Below the pieces are notes generated by a model. The model was not told the DNA's origin. It saw nothing but the letters and a program-made list of their open reading frames with translations, and did no database searches. A stretch of DNA of 64,000 bases, taken from Minisyncoccota bacterium. Its GTDB lineage: Bacteria; Patescibacteriota; Minisyncoccia; Phycocordibacterales; UBA9973. Of this stretch, positions 5,713 through 63,146 are shown one piece after another. Position numbers and translations under genes: made by a program. Location of the stretch: the NCBI GenBank assembly GCA_017991515.1, contig JAGOQI010000002.1:15088-79087 (forward strand). The letters run 5' to 3'. The stretch's first letter is position 1, and every line of letters begins with the position of its first letter.

Positions 5713-5742
5713 AAAAAATCCTCAAGCAATTGAGGATTTTTT
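5713..5742 (+). terminator. rho-independent terminator
   Basis: AAAAAATCCTCAAGCAATTGAGGATTTTTT: perfect hairpin followed by a T-run. Confidence 0.7.
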
Positions 5743-5757
5743 GATATACTTAACAAG

Positions 5758-10306: not shown

Positions 10307-10469
10307 AGCCGTTACCTCCCAAATAGGGAGTCGTTTTTTGAAAATTGTATAGAGAACGCGAGTTCTCAAAGTCTATTTTATGTAATTTGAGTATTTTCAA
10401 ACTTGGGCAAAAGTTTTTCTTTTGCCTCATTCTAGTCGGCATTTTATTTATAAAAGCCAACTTATATTA

Positions 10470-12008
<1,539 letters not shown>

Positions 12009-12189
12009 TTGAGATTGTTCTGATTGTACCTCAGGTACACAGGATTGATACGGTTGATCATTGTTCTGCAAAGAATAATGGTGTTGTGGTAAGCGACGTA
12101 ATGCTTACTCCTTGCGCCAAGGTTATGGCGCAAAAATCCCTGGTGTGTATTCTATAGAGCACATCATGGTAGAATGAGGCAATAGAAAG

Positions 12190-15907: not shown

Positions 15908-15954
15908 AGTTATTTTAATAATTAATATATAGTGTTTTTGTTGTACCGAATGAT

Positions 15955-16210
15955 CGCGCTTACTCATAAGAGTATGTGAGGAAAGTCCGAACACATAACG
16001 ATTTAATTCGTACAGGTAGTGGGTAATACCCATCGTGGGCAACCATAGGGCTGCGAACAGTGACGAATCCCTTTAGTGGGAGTGAAACGGCTAAATGCCT
16101 ATCCGTGTGCAAGACCGTGCTGAGAAATCAGAGTGTCGCTTGAGGATGACAGTAATATCATTCCCAGATAAATGATCACTAGAACAGAACTCGGCTTATG
16201 AGTACAACAA
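15955..16210 (+). ncRNA. rnpB: RNase P RNA (compact bacterial type)
   Basis: P4 5' strand GAGGAAAGTCCG near the start and P4 3' strand ACAGAACTCGGCTTA near the end; P1 pairing TACTCATAAG/CTTATGAGTA; CCATAGGGCTGCGAACAG and GTGAAACGG motifs; terminator directly downstream. Confidence 0.7.
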
Positions 16211-16213
16211 ATA

Positions 16214-16243
16214 TCAAAAAAATCCGCACAACGCGGATTTTTT
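16214..16243 (+). terminator. rho-independent terminator after rnpB
   Basis: AAAAAAATCCGCACAACGCGGATTTTTTT. Confidence 0.75.
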
Positions 16244-26477: not shown

Positions 26478-26605
26478 ATTATTGGCTTCATTATGCCACA
26501 CAAAACCAGCGGACAAAAACATTGACATACTCTGTCAGAAGTTTATAGTTAAAGTATCTCTTGTTAGAGGGAGTAGAGTTATTAGTCTTAAACAGTATAT
26601 ATATT

Positions 26606-29600
26606 ATGAATATTCTTATTTCAACAAATAAGTCTCAAAAGGCGTTAAAAGCGTTCTTTTCAGGCTTTCTAATTTTTAGTTTCATTTTTGCACAAGTAGC
26701 AATGCCACTTTCTGTAGCATACGCTCAGTCAGCAGACGATACTCCTGCAGTTGAAAAAACTGAAGCAGTAATTCCTGCAAGTCCTGAACCTGAAGTTCAG
26801 AAAGTAGTAGAAGATGAAGGATCTGAAGATGAACAAGCAAAAGCGCCGCAACAAGTTTCTCTTATTCAATCGACGGCTACTGTAATTGCTACAAAAGTAG
26901 TTTGTGCTAGTGAAGCCGATCTTCCAAACTGGGGAGCAGGCGGAGCAAACATTACAAGTACTACTGCTTCAGATTATGTGTTAGAACACCCGTCTTGTCA
27001 TACCACTGATTGGACATTTGAATGGGCTTCGTCTTCTACTCCTAATCCAGGAGACAACCAAACACTAGGTGGCGCCGGTTGGACACCTTTTCTAAACAGT
27101 ACTCCTGTACCTGTACCAACAAATCCCTCTTATGTCTGGGTTCGTGAACAACTACCAGATACTTATATACCATTCTCAGGTGACATAACAGATCCTCGCG
27201 ATCAAAATGTTTCTGCTGAATTATATTGTAATACTGATGTTTTAAACTACGACAACTATGACCGAGTAGACAATATGGCTACTGATGGGATTTATCATTG
27301 TGTAGGTTTTAACGTACAAAAAGAAAAGCCCCTTCAATGTAATCCAGAAGTAAATTTGATACAAAACGGTGATTTTGAAGCACCAGTTCTATCCAGTGGT
27401 ACATGGAGTATTATTCCAAGTTCAAACTCTCTATTAAAATGGATGGTTGACTGGATTCTCCCAATACCACTCTCTGGTATTTTAGGTCTAGAAATTCAAA
27501 ACAATGTAGCAGGTGCCCCAGCAGGAGGTAACCAACATGCAGAACTAGATGGAGACCATCCTGTAACTATCTGGCAAGATATACCTACTATCGCTGGCAA
27601 ACAATACTCTCTAACATTTAAATATTCTCCTCGACCAGGACGAGATGCAGCTGACAATTCTATTCAACCAAAAATAGATGGAGTTGTTCTAGGTGCCGCT
27701 ATCAGTGTTGATGGAACCGCAAATACAAATACTGCGTGGCAGACCATAACTCGTACATTCATGGGTACTGGCTCACCTGTAAAAGTAGAACTTGCAGATG
27801 CAGGTACCGATACTAGTTATGGTGGTTATCTTGACGATGTAGCAGTAAATTGTAATCCAGAACCGATTTTGCAATGTGACGCTAATGCTTCAAGTACTAT
27901 TGTTAGTGACTCTTCTACTCAAGTGGACAGTCATGGCGCATTAGCACTTTCATATATCCATCCAGGATGGACAGCAAATATTCCTGGTGCTACTTGGATT
28001 TGGGCAACCGATCCAGTTGAATCTCCGACAAACGATGCAGACCTTACAAAAGTTTTCACAAAGACATTTTCTATTGTTGGAACTCCAACATCTGGCAATC
28101 TAGAAGTAGCTGCTGATAATAGTTATACAGTTAAAGTTAATGGTACATCTGTACCTGTAGTGTTCGCAGAAAATAACTTTCAAACAGGAACTCAGGATTC
28201 TTATGATGTAAGCTCTTTACTTATAAGCGGTATTAACACTCTTGAAATATCAGTTACAAACTGGGAAATAAATCAAGACGCAAATCCAGCAGTAAATCCT
28301 GCAGGACTACTTTACAAACTTTCTATTTCAAATGATGAATGTATTACTCCGCCTCCAACACCAAGTACTTCAACTGTAACAATGTGTAAGACAGATGACG
28401 CACAACCAGCAAAACCTCTTTCTGGATGGCAACTTATGCTCTCTGGAGCAAGTGTTGGATCTGTTGATGTTTTACCAAATGGAAGTGACTTCAAGATCTT
28501 GGGAGTACCAGCAGGAAACTATCTTCTAAAGGCTACTGGTCAATACACATATAGAGGTACAGCCGGAGCTGAATACTCTGATGCTGCTTATTCAAAACGA
28601 GATGCAGGAGATGCTGTATACCAAAGTGCTGCTCTTGACCCAATACAATCTCCATTCTTGCCATGGGTAAGAGAAAATAATTTCCCAAATCCAAACACTG
28701 GATGGCTTGGTGTGAAATACAACAATGCTTTTACTGATTGGGGTTCAATGTTTAATCCAACTCATAAATATGCCCTAGGAACAACAACTGCATCTTTAGG
28801 AGATATGTCATTTAAAATCTTAGATGACATATATGGAGATAACTCAGGACATATCACTATCAATGCCAATAAGGGTTACTCTGGTATCACAGAACAAAAT
28901 GGATGTGTTACTTTCACTGATGTTCCTTATGGTGCATATAATGTTGAGGAAATGTTACAAGACGGCTGGACTAATGTTTCAGGTCTTATGTCAGTAATGG
29001 TTGATGAACCTACTGAAACATTTACTGTAGTAAATCATGATGATTCTGTACAAGTAGAACCTACTGGCTCTATCGAAATCACAAAATACACTTGTCCTGC
29101 AAACTTTGTTCCAAATAGAACAAACAATGGTGTAGGTAGCACTGCGCCAGACGGATGTGTTCTTACATCAGATGTAGAATTTGGATATGTTCACGGTGTT
29201 CAGACAGATGCAAACAGTCCTTATCCAGAGCTTGATGCAACACTTACTTCAGGTGGAGTAACAGGTGTTGATGGCAAACTAACTATTGGTCCAGTATCTT
29301 CTGATGGAAGATATTTGATAAAAGAAACTGATCCAACAAACTTGGCTGGTCTTTATTGTGAAGGAGATGGTGACACAAATCCAAACAACAACGATAACCA
29401 AGAATTAACATTTGTTACTGCAGGAGTAACTACTCACTGTGTTGCTTATAACAAAACAACAGGCGGTGGCGGTGGAGATGAAGAAACAAATACTTCACAT
29501 ACAACTGTTGTTAAAGCAGGGGATCTTGATACAGAAACAAATAGATTTGTTGCAGCTGTTAATAATTCTGGAAAATGGTTCTTCTACAATGATGAGAATG

Positions 29601-30691
29601 ATACTATAAATAATACTCTTGGTTCATTTGTGGCAGGTCCAGATACTGCTCCAGAAGGAAACGGTAGTGCTCAAATGTCAGTTAGTGGAACAGAGAGAAA
29701 GAATATTGCGACTTATCAATTCAAAGATGTAAAACTCTCTGATATCAAATCTCTTTCTTTCTCAACATATTCTCAATTAGCAGGAGATGGTCAAAATGGT
29801 CTTTCAGAAAGAGCTCCTTACTTGCACTTCAATGTTGATTTCTTAAATAATGACACATGGCAAAGAAGATTAGTTTATGTTCCAGGTGTTAATGGTGTAG
29901 TTACACCAGACTCTTGGCAGTCATGGGATGCTATAGATAGCGGAAATGCTTTATGGCTTTATTCAGGTGCTACATGGCCTACAACAGTAACTCCTGGAAC
30001 AACTCCAAAGACATGGAATCAAATCCTAGCTCTTTATCCAAATGCAGAAACTCGTTCAACAGATTCATGGTTTGGATTTAGAGTTGGAGAGCCTTACGCA
30101 AATGGATTTACTGGTAATGTAGATAAGTTTGTTATTGGTATCAAAACAGGTCTTAACACTCACACAGAAACTTATGACTTCGAACCAACAGCACAAACAC
30201 CTTTAGTGTGTGATGCAGGTTTTCATGTAGAAGGAGAAAACTGTGTTCCTGATCCTACTATCAACTCTGGAGGTGGAGGTGGTGGTGGTGGAGGAGGTGG
30301 CTCAGCTCCACTAGCCAAGAGCATATCAGCTCCTTCAGGCGGACAAGTTCTCGGAGCTTCTACTTCTTGTGGAATCTATCTAAATGATTATCTAAAGTTT
30401 GGACAAAAGAATAATGCAGAAGAGGTTATGAAACTTCAAACATTCTTAAATGACTATTTAGCTCTTAATCCAAAACTAAAAGTAGACGGCAAGTTCGGAT
30501 TGAATACTTTCAGAGCAGTAATAAAGTTTCAACAAATGGAATCTCTATTTGTTCTACAACCTTGGGTTGGAATAACTCTCAAGAATGATGACAAGGGGAC
30601 TGGTTGGGTATACAAAACTACACGTACTCGGATAAACAATATTATGTGTCCTGAGTTAAATCTAAGTATTCCGCCTCTAGTAATAAACTAA
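26606..30691 (+). CDS. giant secreted cell-surface protein with Cna-B/prealbumin-like repeats, poly-Gly linkers and a C-terminal peptidoglycan-binding domain
   Basis: Signal peptide from the internal Met; repeated segments of the type GCVTFTDVPYGAYNVEEMLQDGWT; G5 and G12 linkers; C-terminal VMKLQTFLNDYL...VDGKFGLNTFRAVIKFQ resembles the PG_binding_1 domain. Confidence 0.75.
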   Translation: MNILISTNKSQKALKAFFSGFLIFSFIFAQVAMPLSVAYAQSADDTPAVEKTEAVIPASPEPEVQKVVEDEGSEDEQAKAPQQVSLIQSTATVIATKVVCASEADLPNWGAGGANITSTTASDYVLEHPSCHTTDWTFEWASSSTPNPGDNQTLGGAGWTPFLNSTPVPVPTNPSYVWVREQLPDTYIPFSGDITDPRDQNVSAELYCNTDVLNYDNYDRVDNMATDGIYHCVGFNVQKEKPLQCNPEVNLIQNGDFEAPVLSSGTWSIIPSSNSLLKWMVDWILPIPLSGILGLEIQNNVAGAPAGGNQHAELDGDHPVTIWQDIPTIAGKQYSLTFKYSPRPGRDAADNSIQPKIDGVVLGAAISVDGTANTNTAWQTITRTFMGTGSPVKVELADAGTDTSYGGYLDDVAVNCNPEPILQCDANASSTIVSDSSTQVDSHGALALSYIHPGWTANIPGATWIWATDPVESPTNDADLTKVFTKTFSIVGTPTSGNLEVAADNSYTVKVNGTSVPVVFAENNFQTGTQDSYDVSSLLISGINTLEISVTNWEINQDANPAVNPAGLLYKLSISNDECITPPPTPSTSTVTMCKTDDAQPAKPLSGWQLMLSGASVGSVDVLPNGSDFKILGVPAGNYLLKATGQYTYRGTAGAEYSDAAYSKRDAGDAVYQSAALDPIQSPFLPWVRENNFPNPNTGWLGVKYNNAFTDWGSMFNPTHKYALGTTTASLGDMSFKILDDIYGDNSGHITINANKGYSGITEQNGCVTFTDVPYGAYNVEEMLQDGWTNVSGLMSVMVDEPTETFTVVNHDDSVQVEPTGSIEITKYTCPANFVPNRTNNGVGSTAPDGCVLTSDVEFGYVHGVQTDANSPYPELDATLTSGGVTGVDGKLTIGPVSSDGRYLIKETDPTNLAGLYCEGDGDTNPNNNDNQELTFVTAGVTTHCVAYNKTTGGGGGDEETNTSHTTVVKAGDLDTETNRFVAAVNNSGKWFFYNDENDTINNTLGSFVAGPDTAPEGNGSAQMSVSGTERKNIATYQFKDVKLSDIKSLSFSTYSQLAGDGQNGLSERAPYLHFNVDFLNNDTWQRRLVYVPGVNGVVTPDSWQSWDAIDSGNALWLYSGATWPTTVTPGTTPKTWNQILALYPNAETRSTDSWFGFRVGEPYANGFTGNVDKFVIGIKTGLNTHTETYDFEPTAQTPLVCDAGFHVEGENCVPDPTINSGGGGGGGGGGGSAPLAKSISAPSGGQVLGASTSCGIYLNDYLKFGQKNNAEEVMKLQTFLNDYLALNPKLKVDGKFGLNTFRAVIKFQQMESLFVLQPWVGITLKNDDKGTGWVYKTTRTRINNIMCPELNLSIPPLVIN

Positions 30692-30757
30692 ATTTAAAAT
30701 TAACAATGCCTCACGAAAGTGGGGTATTGTTTTGTTTGAGATATTCTGTTAAACTTT

Positions 30758-31789
30758 ATGCAACATATGATTAAGCATGTCAAAAAGTACTTAATAGCCC
30801 ACGAAGGCAACAGTTATAAACCTCATTTGCTTCGAGAGAAGAGCCTGACTGCTATAGCGGTCCTGATATTTGTGCTTTTTTGTACATCTTTAGGGAGCTC
30901 ATATTTGATAAATAAGACAGATTTTGGGGCAGCGGTTTTACCTGCTGTTTTGGTTGATTTGACCAACGAACATCGTCTTGCCAACAATGGTAAGGCTTTG
31001 GCTATTAATACAACTCTTGAAAAAGCAGCTTCGATGAAAGCCAAAGACATGGCAGAGAATCAATACTTTGCTCACACTAGTCCGACAGGAGTAACACCAT
31101 GGTATTGGTTTTCAAAAGCAGGGTATAAATTTGTTTATGCAGGGGAGAACCTAGCTATCAACTTCACAGAATCTCTTGATGTTGAGAGAGCTTGGATTGC
31201 TTCACCGACCCATCAAGCGAACTTAATAAGTGAGAAATTTGATGAAACTGGTATTGCTACCTATCAAGGAACATACCAAGGAAAACCGACTATTTTCGTT
31301 GTTCAGCTCTTTGGAAAGAGCGCTAAACCTCGTCCTGTGACTACTGTCACCAAAGAGGTCCAAAGTCCCGTCTCAGAGCCCGAGAAGCTCGCACAGGAGG
31401 ATACAAAAGCCCCAGAGGTTAAAGGTGAAAGTGTGGCTATTGTCGAGCAAGCTTCGGTAGATCCTGAAGAACCAGCTCCTGTACTACTGGTACAAGAACC
31501 TACATTTTCTGTAGCTCAAAATTTGAACGAAACAGAACCAGAACAAGAGGCTAGTTTTACTGCTCCAAAATATTCTACTTTAGCTGAAAGACTTTTAGTT
31601 AATCAAGCAAAATATGTTCAATATGTTTACTTAGGACTTATCATTCTTATTTACTTTGTTCTTATCGGAATGATAGTTACAGAATTTAAAATTCAACACG
31701 TAAAAAATATATCTTTAGCTGTTTTACTTTTATGTTTGCTTGGAGCTTTGGCCTATATAAATAGCAGTTTCGTTTTGTCATTTGTATAA
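30758..31789 (+). CDS. membrane-anchored CAP / SCP (YkwD-like) domain protein
   Basis: LTNEHRLANNGKAL...FAHTSPTG...AGENLAINF...WIASPTHQANLIS is the CAP-domain motif set; C-terminal transmembrane helix. Confidence 0.7.
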   Translation: MQHMIKHVKKYLIAHEGNSYKPHLLREKSLTAIAVLIFVLFCTSLGSSYLINKTDFGAAVLPAVLVDLTNEHRLANNGKALAINTTLEKAASMKAKDMAENQYFAHTSPTGVTPWYWFSKAGYKFVYAGENLAINFTESLDVERAWIASPTHQANLISEKFDETGIATYQGTYQGKPTIFVVQLFGKSAKPRPVTTVTKEVQSPVSEPEKLAQEDTKAPEVKGESVAIVEQASVDPEEPAPVLLVQEPTFSVAQNLNETEPEQEASFTAPKYSTLAERLLVNQAKYVQYVYLGLIILIYFVLIGMIVTEFKIQHVKNISLAVLLLCLLGALAYINSSFVLSFV

Positions 31790-37686: not shown

Positions 37687-37716
37687 ACTCTTGCCCAGAA
37701 ATGCTATAATAAGGAT

Positions 37717-45117: not shown

Positions 45118-45339
45118 ATGGTTTTAGAAGATAAGCCAATTCATGTTCGCAGAAAGATAGCTCTTAGGATTACTATTATTGTCGGAGCAATACTTTTGGC
45201 TATTTTGGCTATCATATATCTCTCAGGTTCAAATAAAGATAATATAGAAAAAGACTCAGCATTTTTGCATTTTTACGCAACAATTTTAGATAATGCGCAA
45301 TCATTTTTTAGTCCAGACCGTGCTATAATAGAGAAATAA
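45118..45339 (+). CDS. hypothetical membrane protein (73 aa)
   Basis: ORF with one transmembrane helix, immediately upstream of gyrA. Confidence 0.35.
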
Positions 45340-47830: not shown

Positions 47831-47903
47831 GGGAGCAATATATTATTTGCGAATCGAGGACTCTGCGTAGGCATCCGCAGAAAGCAAATAATATATTGCT
47901 CCC
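47831..47903. repeat. 73-bp nested hairpin at the gyrA 3' end that carries a copy of the GC-rich palindromic element
   Basis: Perfect 20-bp inverted repeat GGGAGCAATATATTATTTGC / GCAAATAATATATTGCTCCC enclosing GAATCGAGGACTCTGCGTAGGCATCCGCAGAAA, which is the inverted copy of 38944-38975. Confidence 0.8.
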
Positions 47904-47949: not shown

Positions 47950-47977
47950 TTCAACTTCACTATCTTACCGGTATAAT
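47950..47977 (+). promoter_or_regulatory. sigma70 promoter of the methyltransferase / solute-binding / pilin-like operon
   Basis: TTCAAC, 16-nt spacer, TATAAT, immediately upstream of 47984. Confidence 0.5.
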
Positions 47978-47983
47978 ATAAAC

Positions 47984-48508
47984 ATGTTCATGGACCCGGT
48001 CCTGTTGTTGCAATCATGTCATTTGAAACCTACTGATTCAGTAGCAGACTTTGGTGCCGGCTCTGGTTTTATGGCCAAGACTATTGCAAACATTGTAACT
48101 TCAGGCAATGTTTTTGCTGTTGAAATAAATAGAGATCTAGTAGCTCGTATTATTCATGAAGTAGAGGATAACCATATAAAAAACATTCATCCACTTTGGG
48201 GTGATGTTGAAATAATAGGTGGATCAAAGCTAGGAGAGAAAAGTGTTGATGTAGCAGTATTTTCTAATATTTTATTTCAGCTTGATGATAAAAAAAATGC
48301 CCTAAAAGAAGCATTTCGTATTTTGAAAGATGGAGGACATTTGATAGTTGTTGATTGGCAGGAGTCATTTGGTGGACTTGGTCCAAAACCAGAGAGAGTT
48401 TTGACAAAAGAAATGGCAGAAGAACTTATTTCTTCTGTTGGTTTTACAAAACTCTCCGATATTTCTCCAGCTGGAGAGCATCATTATGCTATACTTTTTA
48501 AGAAATAA
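47984..48508 (+). CDS. class I SAM-dependent methyltransferase (small-molecule or RNA type)
   Basis: Motif I DFGAGSGFMAK; motif post-I and II spacing typical of UbiE/SmtA-like methyltransferases; not a DNA methyltransferase. Confidence 0.65.
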   Translation: MFMDPVLLLQSCHLKPTDSVADFGAGSGFMAKTIANIVTSGNVFAVEINRDLVARIIHEVEDNHIKNIHPLWGDVEIIGGSKLGEKSVDVAVFSNILFQLDDKKNALKEAFRILKDGGHLIVVDWQESFGGLGPKPERVLTKEMAEELISSVGFTKLSDISPAGEHHYAILFKK

Positions 48509-48511
48509 AAT

Positions 48512-49825
48512 ATGAAATCTACATTTCAAACTATTTTAATAGCCGTATTTATCGCAGCTTTCATTGGGGCTATTCTTATTTTTGCTGGAGTTATAAATAT
48601 TGGCAAATCTTCTTCTAATAATACAGTTACAGGTTCTGTAGTTGTTTGGGGTATTTATCCTTCAGAGGTAATGCAGCCATTTATAGAGAAAATAAATACA
48701 AAAAATAAAACTATCAACACTTCTTATTTACAGGTAACTCCCGAAAATTTTAGAAATAATTTAATAGAAGCTTTAGCTAGTGGAACTGCACCAGATATAG
48801 TGATAGCAGATTCTGGTCAAATTTTCTCTTTCAGAGACAAGCTCTACACCATACCTTTTGCTACCTATAACGAAAGGCTTTACCGAGATACTTTTATAGA
48901 CGGAGCTTCAATATTTTTAAATAAAGAAGGAGTACTCGCTGTACCTCTTTTGGTTGACCCGCTTGTTACTTATTACAACAAAGATCTTTTGGCAGGGCAG
49001 AGATTTGTAGTTCCTCCAACATCTTGGTCTTCCTTAGTGCAGTCATTGCCTTTATTTGTTAAAAAAGATGCAAAAGGAGTTATAACTCAAACAGCTATAG
49101 GTCTTGGAGAATGGTCAAATGTAAATCATTTCAAAGACATTCTCTCAGCTCTTTTCTTGCAAACAGGTAATCCTATAGTTTCTCTAGACTCTTATACAGG
49201 TCTTTATGTACAGAGATTGAATACTTCTACTGTTCAAAATAATGACACAGAGCTTCCTACAGTTTCAGCATTAAATTTCTTTACTAGTTTTGCAAATCAG
49301 GCGAGCTCAATGTTCTCTTGGTCCAGAAATCTTCCAAGTACTTTAGATATGTTTCTCTCTGGTAAAAGTGCATTTTACATAGGAAGGGCTAGCGAGCTCT
49401 TTACTATTCAAGCGCGTAATCCAAACTTGAACTTTGATGTTTCTACACTATTTCAAGCTGATGGAGCTATTAGACCTGTGACACACGGACTTTTTAGTGG
49501 CCTTGCTATGATCAAATCAAGTCCAAATTTCTCGGCTGCTTATATTGTTGCAGGGGATTTAACAAGTGCGGAGTTTACAGAATACCTCTCAGGTGCGACT
49601 TCACTTCCTTCTGTAAGACGAGATTTATTACTTACTCAGCAAACAAATCCTTATGTGCAAGTTTATTTCCAAGCCGCTCTTTCTGCATTTGGTTGGCCGG
49701 ATGTAGATAACATAGCTACTGAAAATGTTTTCCGTGATATGATAAGAAATATTAATAGTGGTGCAACTAATCCAAATCAAGCAATATATGAAGCGTCTCG
49801 CGATTTACAGTCTATTGTTCGTTAG
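48512..49825 (+). CDS. extracellular solute-binding protein (family 1-like), membrane-anchored, orphan
   Basis: N-terminal transmembrane anchor, then a periplasmic-binding-protein-like sequence (VVVWGIYPSEV...APDIVIADSGQ...VPLLVDPLVTYYNKDLL); no permease or ATPase genes nearby. Confidence 0.55.
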   Translation: MKSTFQTILIAVFIAAFIGAILIFAGVINIGKSSSNNTVTGSVVVWGIYPSEVMQPFIEKINTKNKTINTSYLQVTPENFRNNLIEALASGTAPDIVIADSGQIFSFRDKLYTIPFATYNERLYRDTFIDGASIFLNKEGVLAVPLLVDPLVTYYNKDLLAGQRFVVPPTSWSSLVQSLPLFVKKDAKGVITQTAIGLGEWSNVNHFKDILSALFLQTGNPIVSLDSYTGLYVQRLNTSTVQNNDTELPTVSALNFFTSFANQASSMFSWSRNLPSTLDMFLSGKSAFYIGRASELFTIQARNPNLNFDVSTLFQADGAIRPVTHGLFSGLAMIKSSPNFSAAYIVAGDLTSAEFTEYLSGATSLPSVRRDLLLTQQTNPYVQVYFQAALSAFGWPDVDNIATENVFRDMIRNINSGATNPNQAIYEASRDLQSIVR

Positions 49826-50357
49826 TCTTTGCTTCTTATCGCAAAGTATAATTTTGTCGCCCACTTATTTTATTCATGCTCAAGAAGAAAAATCAAAAGG
49901 CGATGGCACTTGCAATGATGGGGTTGATAACAGTGATCCGGCAGATGGAAAGGCTGACTACTATGGTGTAGATACAAATGGTGATGGAAAGTTAGACTTG
50001 GAGCCAGACCCATCATGTATTGCACCAGAAGGGACAGAAGGTTCTGATATTTCAAACAGCAATCTTATATCTTGCTATAACTACTGTACATTCTCTGATG
50101 TACTGCGGACTATCAACAATTTCATAACTTTTCTCATCACAACTTTATTTATACCTACATTAGTCCTACTGTTTATGTATGCTGGCTTTAAATACATCAC
50201 AGCCCAAGGCAATCCTTCAAAGGTTGCCAATCTCAAGAAGATGCTTATGAATATAGTCATTGGTATGCTTTTGATTTTGTGTGCTTGGTTGATAGTTAAA
50301 GTAATACTTACCACTTTGGTTAAAAATGAAGATAGTGCTCTGCAATTTTTAGAATAG
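49788..50357 (+). CDS. secreted pilin-like protein, paralog 1 (Cys/Asp-rich region plus C-terminal two-transmembrane TrbC/VirB2-like module)
   Basis: Signal peptide MKRLAIYSLLFVSLCFLSQS; CNDGVDNSDPADGKAD and DTNGDGKLD calcium-binding-like motifs; C-terminal FIPTLVLLFMYAGFKYITAQGNPSKVANLKKMLMNIVIGMLLILCAWLIVKVIL; start overlaps the preceding gene by 38 nt. Confidence 0.55.
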   Translation: MKRLAIYSLLFVSLCFLSQSIILSPTYFIHAQEEKSKGDGTCNDGVDNSDPADGKADYYGVDTNGDGKLDLEPDPSCIAPEGTEGSDISNSNLISCYNYCTFSDVLRTINNFITFLITTLFIPTLVLLFMYAGFKYITAQGNPSKVANLKKMLMNIVIGMLLILCAWLIVKVILTTLVKNEDSALQFLE

Positions 50358-50372
50358 TGATATAATAATATT

Positions 50373-50927
50373 ATGAAAATCCGCCACCTTCTTTTAGTCT
50401 TACTCCTTGTTCTTGGGATTTTTAGTACTACTTTTGCTCAAGCACCAGTTAGATCTCCACAAAATCCTCCTGTACAGTCTCCAAATCAATGTAATGATGG
50501 GAAAGATAATGGTGATGGCGACAATCTGGCTGATGACAAAGATCCAGATTGTAAAACTGGAGTAAAATGTGAAGATGGTACAACAAAATGTATAACTCAA
50601 GCAGGTACAGGAACTAGTGGCACAACTTCAGGCTCTGATGCCACTGATTTTGACCTAAAGGTTCGCATAAATAATCCTTTGAAAGTTGGAACTATATCTG
50701 AAGCTATAAGTTTGTTCATGAACGCCGTGCTTCGTATTGCTATACCATTTATCATCATCTTCTTTATTTGGAGTGGTTTAAGCTTTATATTGGCTCGGGG
50801 TAACCCTGAAAAAATAAAAACTGCCAAAAATATGTTTTGGTATACTGTTATCGGTACACTTCTGATACTTGGAGCTTGGACTATTACAAACGCTATTATT
50901 GGTACAGTTAATTCGATAACAGGATAA
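50373..50927 (+). CDS. secreted pilin-like protein, paralog 2
   Basis: Signal peptide; QCNDGKDNGDGDNLADDKDPDC; C-terminal IPFIIIFFIWSGLSFILARGNPEKIKTAKNMFWYTVIGTLLILGAWTITNAIIG. Confidence 0.6.
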   Translation: MKIRHLLLVLLLVLGIFSTTFAQAPVRSPQNPPVQSPNQCNDGKDNGDGDNLADDKDPDCKTGVKCEDGTTKCITQAGTGTSGTTSGSDATDFDLKVRINNPLKVGTISEAISLFMNAVLRIAIPFIIIFFIWSGLSFILARGNPEKIKTAKNMFWYTVIGTLLILGAWTITNAIIGTVNSITG

Positions 50928-50929
50928 TT

Positions 50930-51583
50930 ATGTTTAAAAAACTCATCACAATTTCTACTTTAGTTTTATCTCTATCTTTTCTATTTAGTTTAAATGTAAA
51001 TGCACAACAAATACCAACTTGTGACTTAAATACTCCTGTCACAAGCCAAAACTTCCCACTATGTTGTCCGTCACAGATTCCAGGGCAAATACAAAAATGT
51101 GCACTTTTTTGTATTAATAACCCAACAGAGATAGCTTGTAACCCAAACATTCGAGGGGGTGGACCGACAACACCTGGGACTAATCCTACAAATACAGGCA
51201 CAACACCAGGAACTATAGCAAATACTCCACAACCCAAGTCTTCAGAATTATCTTCTTGCAATGTTATCGCTTTTGATTCTCTTTTAGATATTTTGATCTG
51301 GCTTAAATGTATTATAGGAAGTGCTATTATTCCTCTTATATTCACCTTAGCTTTCTTGTACTTCCTTTGGGGGATGGTTCAATACATCCGTAATGCCAAT
51401 AACGAGAAGAAGAGGGAAGAGAGTAAAAAATTTATTTATGTAGGTATTATTGCTCTGACTGTTATGGTCTCTGTTTGGGGGATTGTTAGGATAGTTACTA
51501 GTACATTTGGTTTAGGTAATACTGTTCCGCAGCTTCAAACAGATTGTTTGACCAATACCAAGGAAAACCCTTGTAAAAAATAG
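50930..51583 (+). CDS. secreted pilin-like protein, paralog 3
   Basis: Signal peptide; Cys-rich region and a T/P/G-rich linker; C-terminal IPLIFTLAFLYFLWGMVQYIRNANNEKKREESKKFIYVGIIALTVMVSVWGIVRIVTSTFGLGN. Confidence 0.6.
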   Translation: MFKKLITISTLVLSLSFLFSLNVNAQQIPTCDLNTPVTSQNFPLCCPSQIPGQIQKCALFCINNPTEIACNPNIRGGGPTTPGTNPTNTGTTPGTIANTPQPKSSELSSCNVIAFDSLLDILIWLKCIIGSAIIPLIFTLAFLYFLWGMVQYIRNANNEKKREESKKFIYVGIIALTVMVSVWGIVRIVTSTFGLGNTVPQLQTDCLTNTKENPCKK

Positions 51584-51647
51584 GGTTGTGGTATACTTAT
51601 AGGGTATCGTATTTATAAAATATTAATATTAAAAACCGTAAATTTAT

Positions 51648-52055
51648 ATGAAAAAAATAGTTGTTTCGTTATTTGTCCTTGCTCTTCTTGTTTTACCAGC
51701 CGCAGTGTCTGCTCAGTTAGGTGGCCCTCGACCAAACTTTACCTACGCTAACACTGCAGTTGAACAGATTATAAGATGGTCACAAATGGCAGTTACATTT
51801 TTGATGATTATTGCTACTTTGTGGTTTATCTGGACTGTTATTGGTTATATCCGAGTCAAGGATGCTACTAAAGCAGAAGATGCTAAAAAGGCGATGATCA
51901 GAGGTATTATAGGACTTTTTGTTATCGTAACTATCTGGGGTATAGTTCGTATTTTAGCAAGTACACTAGGAGTAACAGGTGGATCATTAAATACTGAAGA
52001 TACTCCTTGTCCTCCAGGTATGACATATAGTACTCTTGATAGAGTTTGTCGATAA
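51648..52055 (+). CDS. secreted pilin-like protein, paralog 4
   Basis: Signal peptide MKKIVVSLFVLALLVLPAAVSA; VTFLMIIATLWFIWTVIGYIRVKDATKAEDAKKAMIRGIIGLFVIVTIWGIVRILASTLGV; C-terminal CPPG...VCR. Confidence 0.6.
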   Translation: MKKIVVSLFVLALLVLPAAVSAQLGGPRPNFTYANTAVEQIIRWSQMAVTFLMIIATLWFIWTVIGYIRVKDATKAEDAKKAMIRGIIGLFVIVTIWGIVRILASTLGVTGGSLNTEDTPCPPGMTYSTLDRVCR

Positions 52056-52063
52056 TCTAAACT

Positions 52064-52402
52064 ATGTTCGAGTACATCGCCTATGCCAAAAGCTTTGACG
52101 CTATTGTCTTTGATATAAACAGGACGATATTAAACCCACTTATCCAGTTTGCTTTCATTGTCGCTTTCGTTATCTTTATTTGGGGTGTAGCAGAATACAT
52201 ACGAAATGCTAACAATCCAGAAGCTCGCAAAAAAGGACAAGACCATATGCTTTGGGGTATTATCGGACTAGTTATCATGGTAGGCGTGTATGGAATTATT
52301 AATATATTAGTAAATACTTTCGGACTAGGAACTCCTCGCATAAATAATGAAGAACAAATATTTACTCCTCCTAAGATAAAAGAAGTAAATATACCGAAAT
52401 AA
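52064..52402 (+). CDS. pilin-like protein, paralog 5 (shortest, no obvious cleavable signal)
   Basis: FAFIVAFVIFIWGVAEYIRNANNPEARKKGQDHMLWGIIGLVIMVGVYGIINILVNTFGLGT. Confidence 0.55.
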   Translation: MFEYIAYAKSFDAIVFDINRTILNPLIQFAFIVAFVIFIWGVAEYIRNANNPEARKKGQDHMLWGIIGLVIMVGVYGIINILVNTFGLGTPRINNEEQIFTPPKIKEVNIPK

Positions 52403-52437
52403 AAAAATCCCCGCGCCTTGCGGGGATTTTGCTTTGT
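52403..52437. terminator. bidirectional intrinsic terminator closing the pilin-like operon
   Basis: AAAAAAATCCCCGCGCCTTGCGGGGATTTTG. Confidence 0.8.
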
Positions 52438-52459: not shown

Positions 52460-52972
52460 CTATAACAATAGTGGAACTTTACTAGTCCAAAGAATCTTGC
52501 AAGGCTTATCTACTGTTAGGGTATGAGAACCTGCAACGGGTCTACTTTGACCAATTATTTCTTCATAACCAACCCTTCCATTATGAAGCCATATTTTATA
52601 GCTCCACTTACCACTCGGACCATCAAAGTTTAGTGTGATGGTGTCCTTTGTGGATATAGGGACGGGGTAGTAGTCATCACCAAAGTTTTTAAGTTGGAAG
52701 CTCTTAGTTTCGTTTTTTGAAAAAGAATTTTCTTTTTCAGGGATGATTGGGTTGGTTGTCACAGCAGGAGAAACATTCTCTGTTGAGATAACAACCTCTT
52801 TTTCTGAAGACTTCTTTTTCTTAAAATCAATTTGAGTAATTGATACTAAGATTAAAATTATGACTGTTGGTATTATAAAATTCCAAGCCCAACCATAATA
52901 ATCTTTGTATTTTTTAACCTTTACAACTTTTTTGTTTTTTGATTTAACTTTATTTTTTTTAAACATTACCAC
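52460..52972 (-). CDS. hypothetical single-pass membrane protein with a lysine-rich cytoplasmic N-terminus
   Basis: KKNKVKSKNKKVVKVKK, then a transmembrane helix, then an extracytoplasmic domain. Confidence 0.5.
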   Translation of the reverse strand: MVMFKKNKVKSKNKKVVKVKKYKDYYGWAWNFIIPTVIILILVSITQIDFKKKKSSEKEVVISTENVSPAVTTNPIIPEKENSFSKNETKSFQLKNFGDDYYPVPISTKDTITLNFDGPSGKWSYKIWLHNGRVGYEEIIGQSRPVAGSHTLTVDKPCKILWTSKVPLLL

Positions 52973-54020
52973 CTCCTTGATTTGGGTTTAATAGTAGGCT
53001 TGTTTTGGTGTCTCCAAGTACTAAGGTTTTTGCCTTAAAACCTTTGTTTATTTTTTTGTGAGCATCAGCTTGTGCTTGTAGTAATGGGACGGTTACATCT
53101 TCAAGTTTCTTTTTCCCAAGTTCTATAATTTGTAACTCGTCAGCTTTTTCTTTTTCCCTTTCTTTGTCCCTGGTTTTATTTTTCTTCTCTTGTAATCCTA
53201 CTTTTTCTGTTTCTACTGTTTTTTCATTTCTAATTTTAAGGATACTTTCTATTTTGTCGTCATATCCTACATCTAAAGAAAAGTCAGGGATGTAGCCTCC
53301 ATATTGTTGAATAACTTTATTCATGTATTTCCGAAGATTGATTTCTCCTTTCCCGAAATTAAGCATGATTGAATTGTCATCATCAATATTAAGACCTATC
53401 ATTTCATCAATTATCAAGTTCTGTAGTTCTTCCTTGGTTATAGAAGGATTAGTAGCTATATTTATAGATGCTAATGTTTTCTCCCACTTAACAGCCCAAG
53501 GGTATATGGCATCATTTAATTGATTACCAACAAAAATTAAAAAGTCATCCATATCATTTGTTTTCATAGGATTTAGTATCTCTACTTTTACAGTAAATAC
53601 TAAATAAAATGTACCACCTGCTTTTGGAAGTATTACTTCTATTGCATAAGGATGTGTTTCAGTTTTACGAAGCCTAGTAACTTCCTCTGTTATGGTTATT
53701 ATAGGTTTTTTAGTACCTAGAATTTGTTGAACAGTACCATAACGTATGGTTTTCCCGTCTTTACTCTTTTTTGGGAGATCTTCAATCTTTAAATTTTCAA
53801 CAAATTTATTGTAAGTTAGTGATTTAAAGACCTTATTAAAAGGCCAAGGCATTGATTTTGTTAAGAAACTTTTCTTATCTCCATCAATATATCCCCAAAT
53901 TTGGTCAAACGGACCCCATGCATGCCAGCGGTTATTTTTAGGCTTTATGGCTCGCCCTGGTAAAAAACCAGATAGCCAATACAAAATTATGGCTGCTGAA
54001 ATGATTAGTGTAGTTATCAT
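52959..54020 (-). CDS. membrane protein, possibly SPFH / band-7-like
   Basis: N-terminal transmembrane helix; central beta-rich region; C-terminal charged coiled-coil (ETEKVGLQEKKNKTRDKEREKEKADE...LLQAQADAHKK). Family assignment is weak. Confidence 0.4.
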   Translation of the reverse strand: MITTLIISAAIILYWLSGFLPGRAIKPKNNRWHAWGPFDQIWGYIDGDKKSFLTKSMPWPFNKVFKSLTYNKFVENLKIEDLPKKSKDGKTIRYGTVQQILGTKKPIITITEEVTRLRKTETHPYAIEVILPKAGGTFYLVFTVKVEILNPMKTNDMDDFLIFVGNQLNDAIYPWAVKWEKTLASINIATNPSITKEELQNLIIDEMIGLNIDDDNSIMLNFGKGEINLRKYMNKVIQQYGGYIPDFSLDVGYDDKIESILKIRNEKTVETEKVGLQEKKNKTRDKEREKEKADELQIIELGKKKLEDVTVPLLQAQADAHKKINKGFKAKTLVLGDTKTSLLLNPNQGGGNV

Positions 54021-54104
54021 TGTTATATGTTTTTATGTTAAAGAAATTGTTTATTTATTTTAATATATTATACATAAAAGTAAGATTTTGTCAATATAAA
54101 TACA

Positions 54105-54135
54105 AATAAAAAATCCCCGGCGAAAGCAGGGGATT
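54105..54135 (-). terminator. rho-independent terminator for the gene at 54155-54556
   Basis: Read on the minus strand: CAAATCCCCTGCTTTCGCCGGGGATTTTTT. Confidence 0.7.
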
Positions 54136-54154
54136 TGAATGTTTTTTTGACGAA

Positions 54155-54556
54155 TTAAAGACCTATGAAGGTTACTCTTTGTTGAGTTCCTCCTTCAGTA
54201 AAATCTATTCTGAATTTCACTGGTTTTGGAGCATTGTACATAAGAGTTTTTTCATTATAATTCCTGAAAAATGTATCTGGCCAATGACTTGGCAAGGGGT
54301 ACATTTCTCCAGCAATGGTTAGCTTCAGTAAGCTTTTACCATCTGCTGATGGCATATAATAATACGCCGTCAGCATTTTTGAGAAACCTACTGGAACTTC
54401 TTCCAGATAAGCAGTTCCGTAGGCTGTTGCCTCACCTTGCTGGTTCAATGCAACAGGACTAAATACTTCAGGAACAAAAGTAATTTTATGCTCCTGAGCT
54501 TTTACTGATGTGAAAGTTCCTAAGACTATTACAAAAATCAAAAATATCTTTTTCAT
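54155..54556 (-). CDS. secreted hypothetical protein
   Basis: Signal peptide MKKIFLIFVIVLGTFTSVKA. Confidence 0.5.
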   Translation of the reverse strand: MKKIFLIFVIVLGTFTSVKAQEHKITFVPEVFSPVALNQQGEATAYGTAYLEEVPVGFSKMLTAYYYMPSADGKSLLKLTIAGEMYPLPSHWPDTFFRNYNEKTLMYNAPKPVKFRIDFTEGGTQQRVTFIGL

Positions 54557-62115: not shown

Positions 62116-62179
62116 CTGATAACCTTTTGGTTGAAGTAAAATCCTTCTTATAAAAAATCTAAATGCTATACTTACTACA

Positions 62180-63127: not shown

Positions 63128-63146
63128 ATGTTATAATAAAAATCTT

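Follow-up and report, generated by a model that had tools for sequence, protein, structure and literature searches.

A conserved patescibacterial array of five T4SS-pilin-type (PF18895) genes linked to methyltransferase and solute-binding protein genes

Five tandem + strand genes (49788–52402) in the 64-kb stretch of DNA that was analysed, referred to below as the window, encode proteins with a common two-helix membrane module of ~80 residues. They belong to an ultra-small patescibacterium with a Candidatus Nomurabacteria-type (class Paceibacteria) chromosome. The best explanation, which we consider reasonably probable, is that they encode non-redundant, anciently diverged patescibacterial VirB2-like (PF18895) subunits that a type IV secretion system (T4SS) encoded elsewhere builds into a pilus-like or wall-spanning structure. 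The data establish that the proteins belong to this family and are predicted hairpins, that the genes are orthologous and syntenic among relatives, that a promoter element is conserved, and which fold a neighboring solute-binding protein (SBP) has.

Results

Organization of the locus

The original prediction of five tandem genes separated by 2–64 nt was confirmed, with open reading frames (ORFs) spaced by 15, 2, 64 and 8 nt from gene 1 to gene 5 (Table 1). Upstream of them lie a methyltransferase gene and then a gene for a membrane-anchored MalE-like SBP, whose end overlaps the start of pilin-like gene 1 by 38 nt. The bidirectional terminator proposed for the operon end is borne out by the strong fold of the hairpin there, at −18.6 kcal/mol for the + strand and −17.8 kcal/mol for the − strand (z = −4.0 and −4.2; 0 of 200 shuffles as stable).

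Table 1 Features of the array and its upstream genes.
Feature	Position	Strand	Description
TATAAT −10 hexamer	47971–47976	+	7 nt 5' of methyltransferase ATG; leaderless-type promoter, putative activity
Methyltransferase gene	47984–48508	+	ORF, 174 aa
Extended −10 TGCTATACT	48487–48495	+	Within methyltransferase 3' end, 16 nt 5' of SBP ATG; putative promoter
SBP gene	48512–49825	+	ORF, 437 aa
Pilin-like gene 1 (orthogroup 1)	49788–50357	+	ORF, 189 aa counted from ATG; module 50085–50324
Extended −10 TGATATAAT	50358–50366	+	6 nt 5' of gene 2 ATG
Pilin-like gene 2 (orthogroup 2)	50373–50927	+	ORF; module 50682–50918
Pilin-like gene 3 (orthogroup 3)	50930–51583	+	ORF; module 51278–51526
Internal extended −10 TGGTATACT	51589–51597	+	Candidate promoter of genes 4–5, then 50-nt 5' UTR
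Pilin-like gene 4 (orthogroup 4)	51648–52055	+	ORF; module 51756–51983
Pilin-like gene 5 (orthogroup 5)	52064–52402	+	ORF; module 52088–52333
Terminator hairpin	52404–52430	both	GC-rich stem between A run and T run

Pfam and structural matches confirmed the identities originally given to the two upstream genes. The methyltransferase matches Methyltransf_31, Methyltransf_11 and Methyltransf_25 with E values of 1e-10 to 1e-12, its nearest solved structures are generic SAM methyltransferases and it has no transmembrane segment; it is predicted to be a small cytoplasmic class I SAM-dependent enzyme. Its gene always immediately precedes that of the SBP, at a median distance of 3 nt (n = 74). The SBP matches Pfam SBP_bac_8 and SBP_bac_1 and has one N-terminal transmembrane segment (residues 10–28). 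A Foldseek search with its AF2 model (pLDDT 86.9) gave sucrose/maltotriose, maltodextrin and manno-oligosaccharide SBPs as the best PDB matches (E about 1e-22), and the model is that of a membrane-anchored protein with a MalE-like, oligosaccharide-type fold. No permease or ATPase gene was found adjoining the SBP gene.

The shared module

Alignments bear out the predicted common C-terminal two-helix module in all five proteins, with pairwise identities of 18–36%. The profile HMM search suggested for T4SS-pilin models was positive: all five match Pfam PF18895 (T4SS_pilin), with 41.5, 38.0, 25.4, 31.1 and 32.7 bits for genes 1–5, four exceeding the curated cut-off of 26.6 bits and gene 3 falling just below it. 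All 115 orthologous modules, those of the gene 3 position included, match the same family. A profile built from the five modules found 374 ORFs in related loci, always at the corresponding place. Because all five match one Pfam family and their profile finds these ORFs, the shared module is far beyond chance. The AF2 model of the gene 5 protein (pLDDT 78.6) has helices at residues 11–47 and 52–85, forming a two-helix hairpin, which is a non-discriminating fold. Each of the five proteins has two or three hydrophobic segments, and the helices are joined by a basic loop with a net charge of +2 to +4.

The earlier description of the module as a TrbC/VirB2-like pilin held in part. The profile matches support a T4SS-pilin-type hairpin, whereas TrbC/VirB2 proper (PF04956, cut-off 27.9 bits) stays sub-threshold at 19.5 bits for gene 1 and 17.8 for gene 2. 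Matches to TrbC/VirB2 also occur in 35 of the 115 orthologous modules (best E 1.2e-6). The hhalign comparison with Ti-plasmid VirB2 was non-significant (E 0.039), as was that with PrgF of the Enterococcus plasmid pCF10 (E 0.023), and neither sequence-profile nor fold searches found a pilin in the PDB. Any direct link to genuine TrbC/VirB2 remains weak, and these results count against the VirB2-like explanation.

The best NCBIfam match of all five is NF045849 (Mbov_0395 pilin-like conjugal transfer protein), with scores of 25–37 bits (37 for gene 5) where the cut-off is 40, and KKP64832.1, the position-4 orthologue of a relative, was labelled FATA_PrgF by a CONJScan profile (Table S3, PMC12102498). 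PrgF and Mbov_0395 of mycoplasma ICEs are likewise two-transmembrane hairpins, of 75–110 residues with an (E/Y)IR...N(D/P)...KG loop (pCF10 PrgF has 75), and the patescibacterial T4SS is MPF-FATA-like (PMC12102498). The five proteins might thus be inner-membrane channel subunits of the PrgF/Maff2/Mbov_0395 type of Gram-positive and mycoplasma conjugation, part of the translocon with no extracellular pilus polymer. This is unlikely, given that every NCBIfam score is below cut-off and hhalign to PrgF so modest, that signal peptides, disulfide-type Cys pairs and large extracellular domains suggest outside exposure, and that five different subunits exceed what known monoderm systems use. PrgF itself is encoded by a single gene in a T4SS operon and has neither a signal peptide nor an extracellular domain.

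Features of the individual proteins

As predicted, the products of genes 1–4 carry N-terminal hydrophobic, signal-like segments and that of gene 5, which is almost pure hairpin module, does not; a separate segment of this kind is absent from 58 of 61 gene 5 orthologues. The gene 1 protein has three hydrophobic segments and a Cys/Asp-rich CNDGVDNSD...PDPSC segment, and the gene 2 protein, of a subfamily common to both, has a putative signal peptide and a CNDGKDNGD...DPDC segment. These two segments had been called calcium-binding-like; the acidic CxDGxDN...PDPxC motif is indeed present, but it has no significant match in Pfam or NCBIfam. The gene 3 protein combines a putative signal peptide, a Cys-rich segment, a Thr/Pro/Gly linker and a C-terminal Cys pair. 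The gene 4 protein has a putative signal peptide (VSA|Q), a short mature form and a C-terminal Cys pair. N-terminal extensions of position-1 orthologues range from 35 to 648 residues and contain lineage-variable extracellular domains: Fn3, TIG, CHB_HEX_C_1 or Pur_ac_phosph_N. The fusion of Ig-like extracellular domains to these orthologues favors the VirB2-like explanation, as does a protein in which position-4-like and position-5-like parts are joined (P0201). Other fusions comprise 6–17 modules; these, like the long N-terminal domains of subunits 1–3, fit poorly with a classical VirB2 filament.

Conservation and rejection of variable-array readings

The related loci are all from Patescibacteria MAGs. 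The order methyltransferase–SBP–pilins is kept in about 70 related species-level Nomurabacteria/Paceibacteria genomes, and in 70 loci the SBP gene is never parted from pilin-like gene 1 (median gap 2 nt). A variable copy number had been envisaged, yet comparative genomics shows five pilin copies in 61 of 70 loci. The best cross-genome match lies at the corresponding position in 303 of 305 cases (gene 2, 61/61; gene 3, 59/61; gene 4, 61/61). The modules diverge no faster than the neighboring SBP and methyltransferase, and no DNA-level repeats able to drive recombination were found in the array. The fixed copy number and orthologous positions speak against recent duplication, copy-number variation and antigenic switching; the five genes are anciently diverged, distinct and fixed orthogroups.

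An antigenically variable family, as the original prediction also proposed and PMC12102498 suggested for Patescibacteria, would consist of interchangeable paralogues kept for diversification of surface antigens or host range. The low pairwise identity and the very variable position-1 extensions would suit it. Nonetheless, this reading is very improbable overall and already largely refuted for the modules by their fixed number, position-specific matches, unexceptional divergence rate and lack of such repeats, to which the absence of a signal peptide from gene 5 across the clade is added.

The suggestion of holin-like, bacteriocin-like or toxin membrane peptides fares worse still and can practically be dismissed. 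The proteins are small with two transmembrane segments, and gene 3 weakly matches the Saf_2TM effector domain (E 0.077), but a PHROG search of the genes gave no match, no phage or immunity genes lie nearby, the module belongs to PF18895, and in about 70 species the array keeps its place beside gyrA, within a housekeeping region.

Promoters

The operon had been placed under one promoter, a claim contradicted by a conserved, predicted internal promoter between genes 3 and 4; further promoter-like extended −10 elements lie 5' of the SBP gene and of gene 2. TGnTAnAnT is found in 58 of the 60 orthologous spacers between genes 3 and 4, compared with a background frequency of 0.6 per kb, and the median length of this spacer in related loci is 106 nt versus 7–18 nt at the other junctions. 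It probably drives genes 4 and 5. Of 61 related loci, 32 have an extended −10 element at −20 to −11 relative to the methyltransferase gene, and 36 have one in the 80 nt preceding the SBP gene. Only 11 of the 61 keep the gene 2 element, so its support as a promoter is weak.

T4SS context

No VirB4, VirB6 or VirD4 genes were found in the window, as originally noted, or in the 10 kb beyond its right end; this lack of T4SS genes nearby speaks against the VirB2-like explanation. In favor of it, relatives with an identical array (KKP64829–64833) have a VirB6-VirB3-TrsD-VirB4-x-VirB2 cluster about 100 genes away (Table S3, PMC12102498). That cluster has its own adjacent PF18895 gene, so the array might serve another purpose. 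In a Nomurabacteria relative with such a distant cluster, the published census called one of the five, position 1, as VirB2 (PMC12102498). Because only position 1 was called VirB2 and position 4 PrgF, the array went uncounted there.

A T4SS-independent envelope complex could also account for this arrangement, with the five hairpins remaining in the cytoplasmic membrane beside the anchored SBP and the PF18895 module acting as a membrane anchor or channel element, rather than as a pilin, in the binding of glycans, in uptake or in display at the surface. The SBP gene, not a T4SS gene, is the tightest conserved partner and lacks a nearby permease or ATPase; the distant T4SS cluster of the relatives has a pilin gene of its own, the position-1 proteins look like surface-display proteins anchored at their C-terminus, and the multi-module fusions are polytopic membrane proteins. 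We nevertheless regard such a complex as improbable: members of the module family adjoin virB4 in 1135 assemblies (PMC12102498), the operon has no energy-coupling component, and we know of no precedent for an SBP that cooperates with hairpins of two transmembrane segments.

Discussion

Comparison with known systems

The locus was originally taken as a candidate for an undescribed cell-surface system, but VirB2-like arrays of Patescibacteria were reported in 2023–2025 and are essential in Southlakia epibionticum (PMC10633639, PMC12857230). The census of Quinonero-Coronel et al. 2025 lists 441 tandem arrays of 2–11 genes in 383 Patescibacteria assemblies (PMC12102498). Those arrays resemble ours in PF18895 membership, tandem arrangement, about 25% identity between neighbors, chromosomal rather than plasmid location and patescibacterial host, and many of the census pilin genes likewise lie away from virB4. 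However, they occur mainly in Microgenomatia and Saccharimonadia, and five fixed orthogroups, SBP/methyltransferase linkage and an internal promoter are not mentioned. S. epibionticum ML1 has an essential pilin series, SEML1_0006–0019, within its T4SS cluster (Wang et al. 2023, PMC10633639), and its Tn-seq essentiality is the sole functional evidence for such arrays. Both cases involve several divergent, structurally alike VirB2-like subunits, a monoderm epibiont and an MPF-FATA-like T4SS without relaxase. S. epibionticum belongs to the Saccharimonadia, not the Paceibacteria, and its six genes are inside the T4SS cluster, whereas the five here accompany an SBP and, in relatives, are far from a cluster with one more PF18895 gene beside virB4.

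Agrobacterium VirB2 and RP4 TrbC (PF04956) share with these predicted subunits a leader with an A|Q cleavage site, a pair of hydrophobic helices connected by a short basic loop, and the size of the mature core, besides the sub-threshold matches above. They have one major pilin, in contrast to five different predicted subunits here, three of which have extra extracellular segments, in a monoderm host and with no adjacent virB operon. Bartonella and Anaplasma also have several divergent, adjacent virB2 paralogues, which have been proposed as a means of varying antigens or host range. The present array has a fixed number and order of genes, with an old orthogroup at every position. PrgZ/TraC of pCF10 is an SBP carried with conjugation/T4SS genes and without its own permease, but it is regulatory and peptide-binding (traC is annotated as a peptide pheromone-binding protein), and the SBP here combines a MalE-like oligosaccharide fold with a transmembrane anchor, its gene being part of the same transcription unit as the pilins.

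Proposed mechanism

For the VirB2-like reading we infer processing, topology, T4SS dependence, pilus formation, a division of labor among subunits and a role of the SBP. The products of genes 1–4 would be exported by Sec and cleaved after an xxA|Q site, and that of gene 5 inserted into the membrane without a leader. Each subunit would become a hairpin in the membrane, its two ends outside and its Lys/Arg-rich loop inside. A predicted monoderm-type T4SS of the genome (VirB4, TrsD, VirB3/PrgI, VirB6), encoded elsewhere, would take up the subunits, which may form a pilus-like or wall-spanning structure where the host cell is contacted. We know of no patescibacterial T4SS for which a pilus has so far been seen. 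The best candidates for the bulk subunits are 4 and 5, which are short and have a conserved predicted promoter to themselves. Subunits 1–3 have N-terminal segments that would lie outside the cell, Cys/Asp-rich in this array and with Fn3/TIG/CHB_HEX_C domains in relatives; they are candidate minor, displayed or adhesive subunits. The co-transcribed, anchored oligosaccharide-type SBP probably recognizes or captures glycans at the same surface.

The new points, small ones, are the conserved unit of methyltransferase, SBP and five pilins with its fixed copy number, position-by-position orthology, fixed five-gene order and tight SBP gene link, the finding that the census recognized just one of the five as VirB2 in a relative, the conservation of the internal promoter, and the lineage-variable extracellular domains at position 1.

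The array and its common module

The methyltransferase gene, the gene of a membrane-anchored MalE-like solute-binding protein (SBP) and five pilin-like genes follow one another on one strand, and the ORF list reproduced exactly the gene coordinates of the original prediction. Genes 1–5 are separated by 15, 2, 64 and 8 nt, and the start of gene 1 overlaps the end of the SBP gene by 38 nt. All five products end in an 80-residue module in which an amphipathic stretch leads into hydrophobic helix 1, a Lys/Arg-rich loop with a net charge of +2 to +4, and hydrophobic helix 2. A common C-terminal two-helix module had been predicted, and alignment, hydropathy and matches to Pfam PF18895 (T4SS_pilin) agree on it. 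The locus is thus a tandem array of five PF18895 genes with gaps of 2–64 nt, whose modules share 18–36% pairwise identity. The genes are old paralogues, because no DNA match among them exceeds 27 nt at 78%.

Features of the array locus and its flanks
Feature	Position	Strand	Evidence or remarks
Methyltransferase gene, 174 aa	47984-48508	+	ORF list
Extended -10 before SBP gene	48487-48495	+	Precedes SBP gene in 36/61 loci
SBP gene, 437 aa	48512-49825	+	ORF list
Pilin-like gene 1	49788-50357	+	ORF list; PF18895 41.5 bits
Extended -10 before gene 2	50358-50366	+	Precedes gene 2 in 11/61 loci
Pilin-like gene 2	50373-50927	+	ORF list; PF18895 38.0 bits
Pilin-like gene 3	50930-51583	+	ORF list; PF18895 25.4 bits
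Extended -10 TGGTATACT for genes 4-5	51589-51597	+	50 nt 5' of gene 4 ATG
Pilin-like gene 4	51648-52055	+	ORF list; PF18895 31.1 bits
Pilin-like gene 5	52064-52402	+	ORF list; PF18895 32.7 bits
GC-rich hairpin between A and T runs	52404-52430	both	~-18 kcal/mol either way, z ~-4
Three genes convergent with the array	52460-54556	-	170, 353, 133 aa

Relative to the PF18895 gathering cut-off of 26.6 bits, genes 1, 2, 4 and 5 score above and gene 3 marginally below. All 115 of 115 sampled orthologous modules, those of position 3 included, match the family at E ≤ 0.01, and precomputed PF18895 matches are concordant with the profile search. The AlphaFold2 model of the gene 5 product, based on an alignment of 35 sequences, consists of two long helices (residues 11–47 and 52–85) with a mean pLDDT of 78.6 and values > 90 in the core. 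Together with the hydropathy of all five products, it displays the two long hydrophobic helices and short intervening basic loop of PF18895. Membership of genes 1–5 in this family is established.

The earlier reading of the genes as TrbC/VirB2-like pilins was right in that they belong to the T4SS (type IV secretion system) pilin family PF18895, but did not hold for PF04956 (TrbC/VirB2; cut-off 27.9 bits), against which genes 1 and 2 score 19.5 and 17.8 bits and genes 3–5 give no match. Among the 115 orthologous modules, 35 match PF04956 at E < 0.01 (best 1.2e-6), and these scores point to distant relatedness rather than membership. Alignment of the 115-module profile with a single Ti-plasmid VirB2 sequence (99% identical to the annotated virB2) using hhalign was in register, with a non-significant E value of 0.039. 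Kinship to the classical VirB2/TrbC proteins is likely, though distant. A comparison of the profile with all PDB sequences returned no pilin and nothing below E 0.1. A Foldseek search of the PDB with the gene 5 model returned generic helical hairpins only (best E 0.44), a result that is uninformative for such a fold; the A. pernix conjugation pilus ranked 43rd, with E 6.

In NCBIfam each of the five genes matches NF045849 best (Mbov_0395 pilin-like conjugal transfer protein, from mycoplasma ICEs), with scores of 25–37 bits that fall below its cut-off of 40 bits. The prgF gene of pCF10 (L093:19545-19772) encodes a 75-aa two-transmembrane hairpin, the loop of which, EIRSGMSNDDPRTLDKG, resembles the patescibacterial module loop YIRNANNPEARKKG. 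The 115-module profile aligns in register with the single pCF10 PrgF sequence at an E value of 0.023, which is not significant, and the sole positive evidence for PrgF is a CONJScan FATA_prgF call on an orthologue of gene 4 (PMC12102498). Given the similar hairpin and loop and this published label, the patescibacterial 'pilins' may have a distant relative in Gram-positive T4SSs. That the five products are PrgF-like subunits of an inner-membrane channel and never form a pilus, one of two main rival readings, is unlikely.

A profile of the five modules retrieved 39,086 cluster representatives at E ≤ 0.001 among 1.84 billion proteins; the pilin-module family is therefore very large. Single polypeptides with 2, 6 or 17 tandem modules also occur (P0201, L091:1748-2314; P0185, L090:76-1743; P0242, L092:10001-15328). 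Three ordinary pilin genes come after the gene of the 6-module protein, and the 17-module protein is encoded on the same contig as the gene of ribosomal protein L39e, which we take to be an archaeal marker. P0201, with 2 modules, is a fusion of a position-4-like and a position-5-like module.

The surrounding window is a housekeeping stretch (gyrA, secA, dnaE, ribonucleotide reductase, infB, clpB and others) with genes for 16S rRNA, RNase P RNA and six tRNAs. Holin- or bacteriocin-like peptides, one of the roles first considered for the hairpins, are largely excluded by these surroundings and by a PHROG search, in which neither the five array genes nor the three downstream genes gave a match at E ≤ 0.01. 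The first two of those downstream genes each encode one N-terminal transmembrane segment. None of the three has a match in Pfam, NCBIfam or PHROGs, and their homologues are detectable in only a minority of the related loci, chiefly the ones nearest by gyrA. As genes without a family match that are confined to near relatives and converge with the array, they were rejected as part of the unit.

The 16S rRNA gene (10463-12009) stands alone, with no adjoining 23S gene, and the RNase P RNA match (15938-16214) covers only 277 nt of the 367 positions in its model, two features in keeping with a reduced patescibacterial genome. Positions 26561-31789 encode a 1376-aa protein with a DUF642 domain and, after it, one of 343 aa with a CAP (cysteine-rich secretory protein) domain; both are candidates for further surface proteins of this small genome.

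Five orthologous positions in related genomes

The 80 nearest gyrA loci in a species-representative genome set (67–90% gyrA identity) are all from Patescibacteria MAGs, entitled Ca. Nomurabacteria, Paceibacteria, Paceibacterota or Minisyncoccia, and in many cases 'uncultured Candidatus Saccharibacteria'; they place the host organism among the Patescibacteria. The gene 5 protein is on deposit as a hypothetical protein of Candidatus Pacebacteria bacterium, and the array locus is also present in metagenome assemblies.

Every ORF of the 80 loci was scanned with the five-module profile. Wherever the contig extends far enough, the order gyrA, methyltransferase, SBP and pilin-module genes is kept. 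Five module genes were found in 61 loci, six in 5, four in 2 and fewer on two truncated contigs. Among the 61 loci with five genes, 303 of the 305 modules find their best match in another genome at the same position, and the positions split into two subfamilies, {1,2} and {3,4,5}. Identity to the window drops no faster for the modules than for the SBP or the methyltransferase; at 90% gyrA identity it is 69–87% for the modules, 68% for the methyltransferase and 65% for the SBP. The fixed copy number, position-specific matches and divergence no faster than that of the neighbors therefore describe ancient, non-redundant orthogroups under purifying selection.

Judged by these comparisons, the array is not a copy-number-variable or recently amplified family, and the suggestion that its copy number varies among relatives is not upheld. 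Antigenic variation, raised in the original prediction and proposed, alongside host-range variation, for arrays of this kind in the census of Quinonero-Coronel et al. (PMC12102498), is likewise largely excluded by the position-specific orthology and by modules that diverge at the pace of their neighbors or more slowly. The fixed order of five subunits favors a defined hetero-oligomeric structure over antigenic variation.

It is outside the module that the genes vary. Hydropathy indicates an additional N-terminal hydrophobic segment in each of genes 1–4 and none in gene 5, and position 5 is without a signal peptide in 58 of the 61 genomes. Likely cleavage sites in genes 1–4, read by eye, are IHA|Q, TFA|Q, VNA|Q and VSA|Q. 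Among orthologues at positions 1–4, A|Q follows the signal-like segment in 33–51%, compared with ~ 6% expected; Agrobacterium VirB2 is likewise cleaved at A|Q. The N-terminal extension of position 1 varies from 35 to 648 aa, and the long extensions bear Fn3, Pur_ac_phosph_N, IPT/TIG, CHB_HEX_C_1 and Fn3_assoc domains. All of these are typical extracellular β-sandwich modules. Position-4 proteins usually close with a Cys pair. The acidic CxDGxDN...PDPxC segment of genes 1 and 2 is restricted to the nearest clade and found nothing significant in family searches (EF-hand_5, E 0.087; acidic double-disulfide repeat, E 0.02), so calcium binding by this segment stays a guess.

Transcription units

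The methyltransferase–SBP and SBP–gene 1 junctions are tight (median 3 and 2 nt, with no locus above 150 nt), whereas gyrA and the methyltransferase gene lie more than 300 nt apart in 14 of 76 loci; the conserved unit therefore begins at the methyltransferase gene. A 67-nt hairpin directly after gyrA (47834-47900; 17-bp perfect outer stem, −28.5 kcal/mol, z −4.9, no T run) may serve to terminate transcription between gyrA and the methyltransferase gene or to insulate the two.

A single promoter had been assumed for the whole operon. The gene 3–gene 4 spacer, however, is the sole long junction (median 106 nt, compared with 7–18 nt elsewhere), and 58 of 60 loci have an extended −10 element (TGnTAnAnT) in it, a pattern with a background frequency of 0.6 per kb; further such elements precede the SBP gene and gene 2. 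A sigma-70 scan of the region gave 11 sites, fewer than the 17 in shuffled sequences, and the extended −10 pattern is not enriched over the whole window (62 vs 65), so that these elements carry weight only by their conservation across loci. On this basis the assumption of one promoter is wrong, and genes 4 and 5 have their own conserved, presumably active promoter.

At many genes of the window an extended −10 ends 6–12 nt 5' of the ATG (45321-45329, 5742-5750, 37702-37710, 62164-62172, 63129-63137, 50358-50366). No Shine-Dalgarno sequences were found, which together suggests that the mRNAs of the host organism are mostly leaderless. Gene 4 departs from this pattern with its 50-nt leader. A GGTCG motif is present in 26 of 60 position-4 5' UTR spacers, a tenfold enrichment (for example L028:7843-7872, L030:13269-13298 and L046:15627-15656). 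Single-sequence folds place it in a hairpin loop in 15 of 35 cases, compared with 18% in a shuffled-flank control, with stem sequences that differ between genomes; RNAalifold gave no consensus for these hairpins because the stems lie in different registers. This hairpin may be a regulatory RNA element. The window's own copy (51598-51650) has neither GGTCG nor a stable fold.

The solute-binding protein and the methyltransferase

The SBP carries a single N-terminal transmembrane segment and matches SBP_bac_1/8 with 52.6 and 45.0 bits. Its AlphaFold2 model is confident (pLDDT 86.9), and Foldseek aligned it with PDB entries at E ~ 1e-22 and TM-scores of 0.63–0.74 by query length and 0.66–0.83 by target length. 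Pfam, AlphaFold2 and Foldseek agree on a two-lobe class II SBP fold. The best PDB matches are all oligosaccharide binders, namely Atu4361 (sucrose or maltotriose), MalE proteins and MnBP1 (manno-oligosaccharide). Cognate permease and ATPase genes are absent beside the SBP gene in all ~ 70 loci, where methyltransferase and pilin genes adjoin it, and a scan of window ORFs turned up no permease either. The methyltransferase belongs to the generic small class I enzymes, has no membrane segments, and is linked to the pilins by nothing but constant adjacency.

Secretion machinery and published arrays

As predicted, no VirB4, VirB6 or VirD4 gene is present in the 64-kb window, nor in the 10 kb that follow on the right, and virB3, virB4 and virB6, taken as neighbors of TrbC/VirB2-family genes, do not lie beside the array. 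GCA_000990415.1 and GCA_000991415.1, relatives with an identical array, have an MPF-FATA-like T4SS with VirB4, TrsD, VirB3 and VirB6 (PMC12102498, Tables S1 and S3), and the distance from array to T4SS cluster in relatives is ~ 100 genes. In Ca. Nomurabacteria GW2011_GWF2_35_12 the cluster (VirB6, VirB3, TrsD, VirB4 and one PF18895 gene) comprises genes 334–340 and the array genes 440–444 (PMC12102498). A membrane complex of SBP and hairpins that operates independently of a T4SS, the other main rival reading, has a low probability.

The array was at first taken as a candidate for an undescribed cell-surface system, which fails because patescibacterial arrays of VirB2-like pilins have already been described (PMC10633639, PMC12102498, PMC12857230). 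Tn-seq showed that pilin subunits of Southlakia epibionticum are essential (Wang et al. 2023, PMC10633639), and a 2025 review considers a possible pilus through which the cell would take up material from its host (PMC12857230). The census, from 2025, screened 3,035 genomes using the PF18895, PF04956 and CONJScan profiles and reported 441 arrays of 2–11 pilin genes in 383 assemblies, with ~ 25% identity (PMC12102498). The present array is an instance of this system, and what is new is comparative detail.

The array proteins of one related locus (L078) are identical to KKP64829–KKP64833 of GW2011_GWF2_35_12. In Table S3 of the census, KKP64829 (position 1) alone is entered as VirB2 and KKP64832 (position 4) as FATA_PrgF, both flagged 'not near VirB4', and positions 2, 3 and 5 are missing (PMC12102498). 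With only positions 1 and 4 in that table, this array was left uncounted. Published array counts are underestimates, because standard profile thresholds miss most such genes in Paceibacteria. The census text is silent on gyrA and on any SBP or methyltransferase (PMC12102498).

Proposed function of the array

The five hairpins are probably used by a T4SS encoded elsewhere to build a structure, pilus-like or spanning the wall, where the cell touches its host, with the SBP alongside. The products of genes 1–5 would be hairpins in the membrane, with the basic loop on the inner side and the two termini on the outer side, and that T4SS would assemble them. Observation supports the family membership, the orthology, the synteny, the conservation of the promoter and the folds, and from these the processing, topology, T4SS dependence and polymerization of the hairpins and the role of the SBP are inferred. 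Subunits 4 and 5, which are short, have their own promoter and are fused in P0201, are likely to be the bulk subunits, and subunits 1–3 the minor or displayed ones. The SBP would work at the same surface in recognition or capture of glycans. Quite unlikely is a self-contained envelope apparatus of the Nomurabacteria, in which the methyltransferase–SBP–five-hairpin unit, rather than being a part split off from the T4SS, would provide a heteromeric PF18895 structure in the membrane or at the surface, working with an anchored oligosaccharide-binding SBP to take up or recognize host glycans. If true, such a system would depend on an SBP but do without an ABC permease; the milder form, if true, would be the first defined hetero-oligomeric 'pilus' with its subunit order written in conserved gene order.

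What role the T4SS and its many pilin-like genes play when ultra-small Patescibacteria live on other cells is an open question, for which current ideas include effector delivery and the uptake of host molecules. Across one large clade, the pilin-like genes encode five old subunits that are not interchangeable and whose order is fixed, and the transcriptional tie of these genes to a sugar-type binding protein offers a concrete candidate for the idea of host-glycan uptake or recognition.
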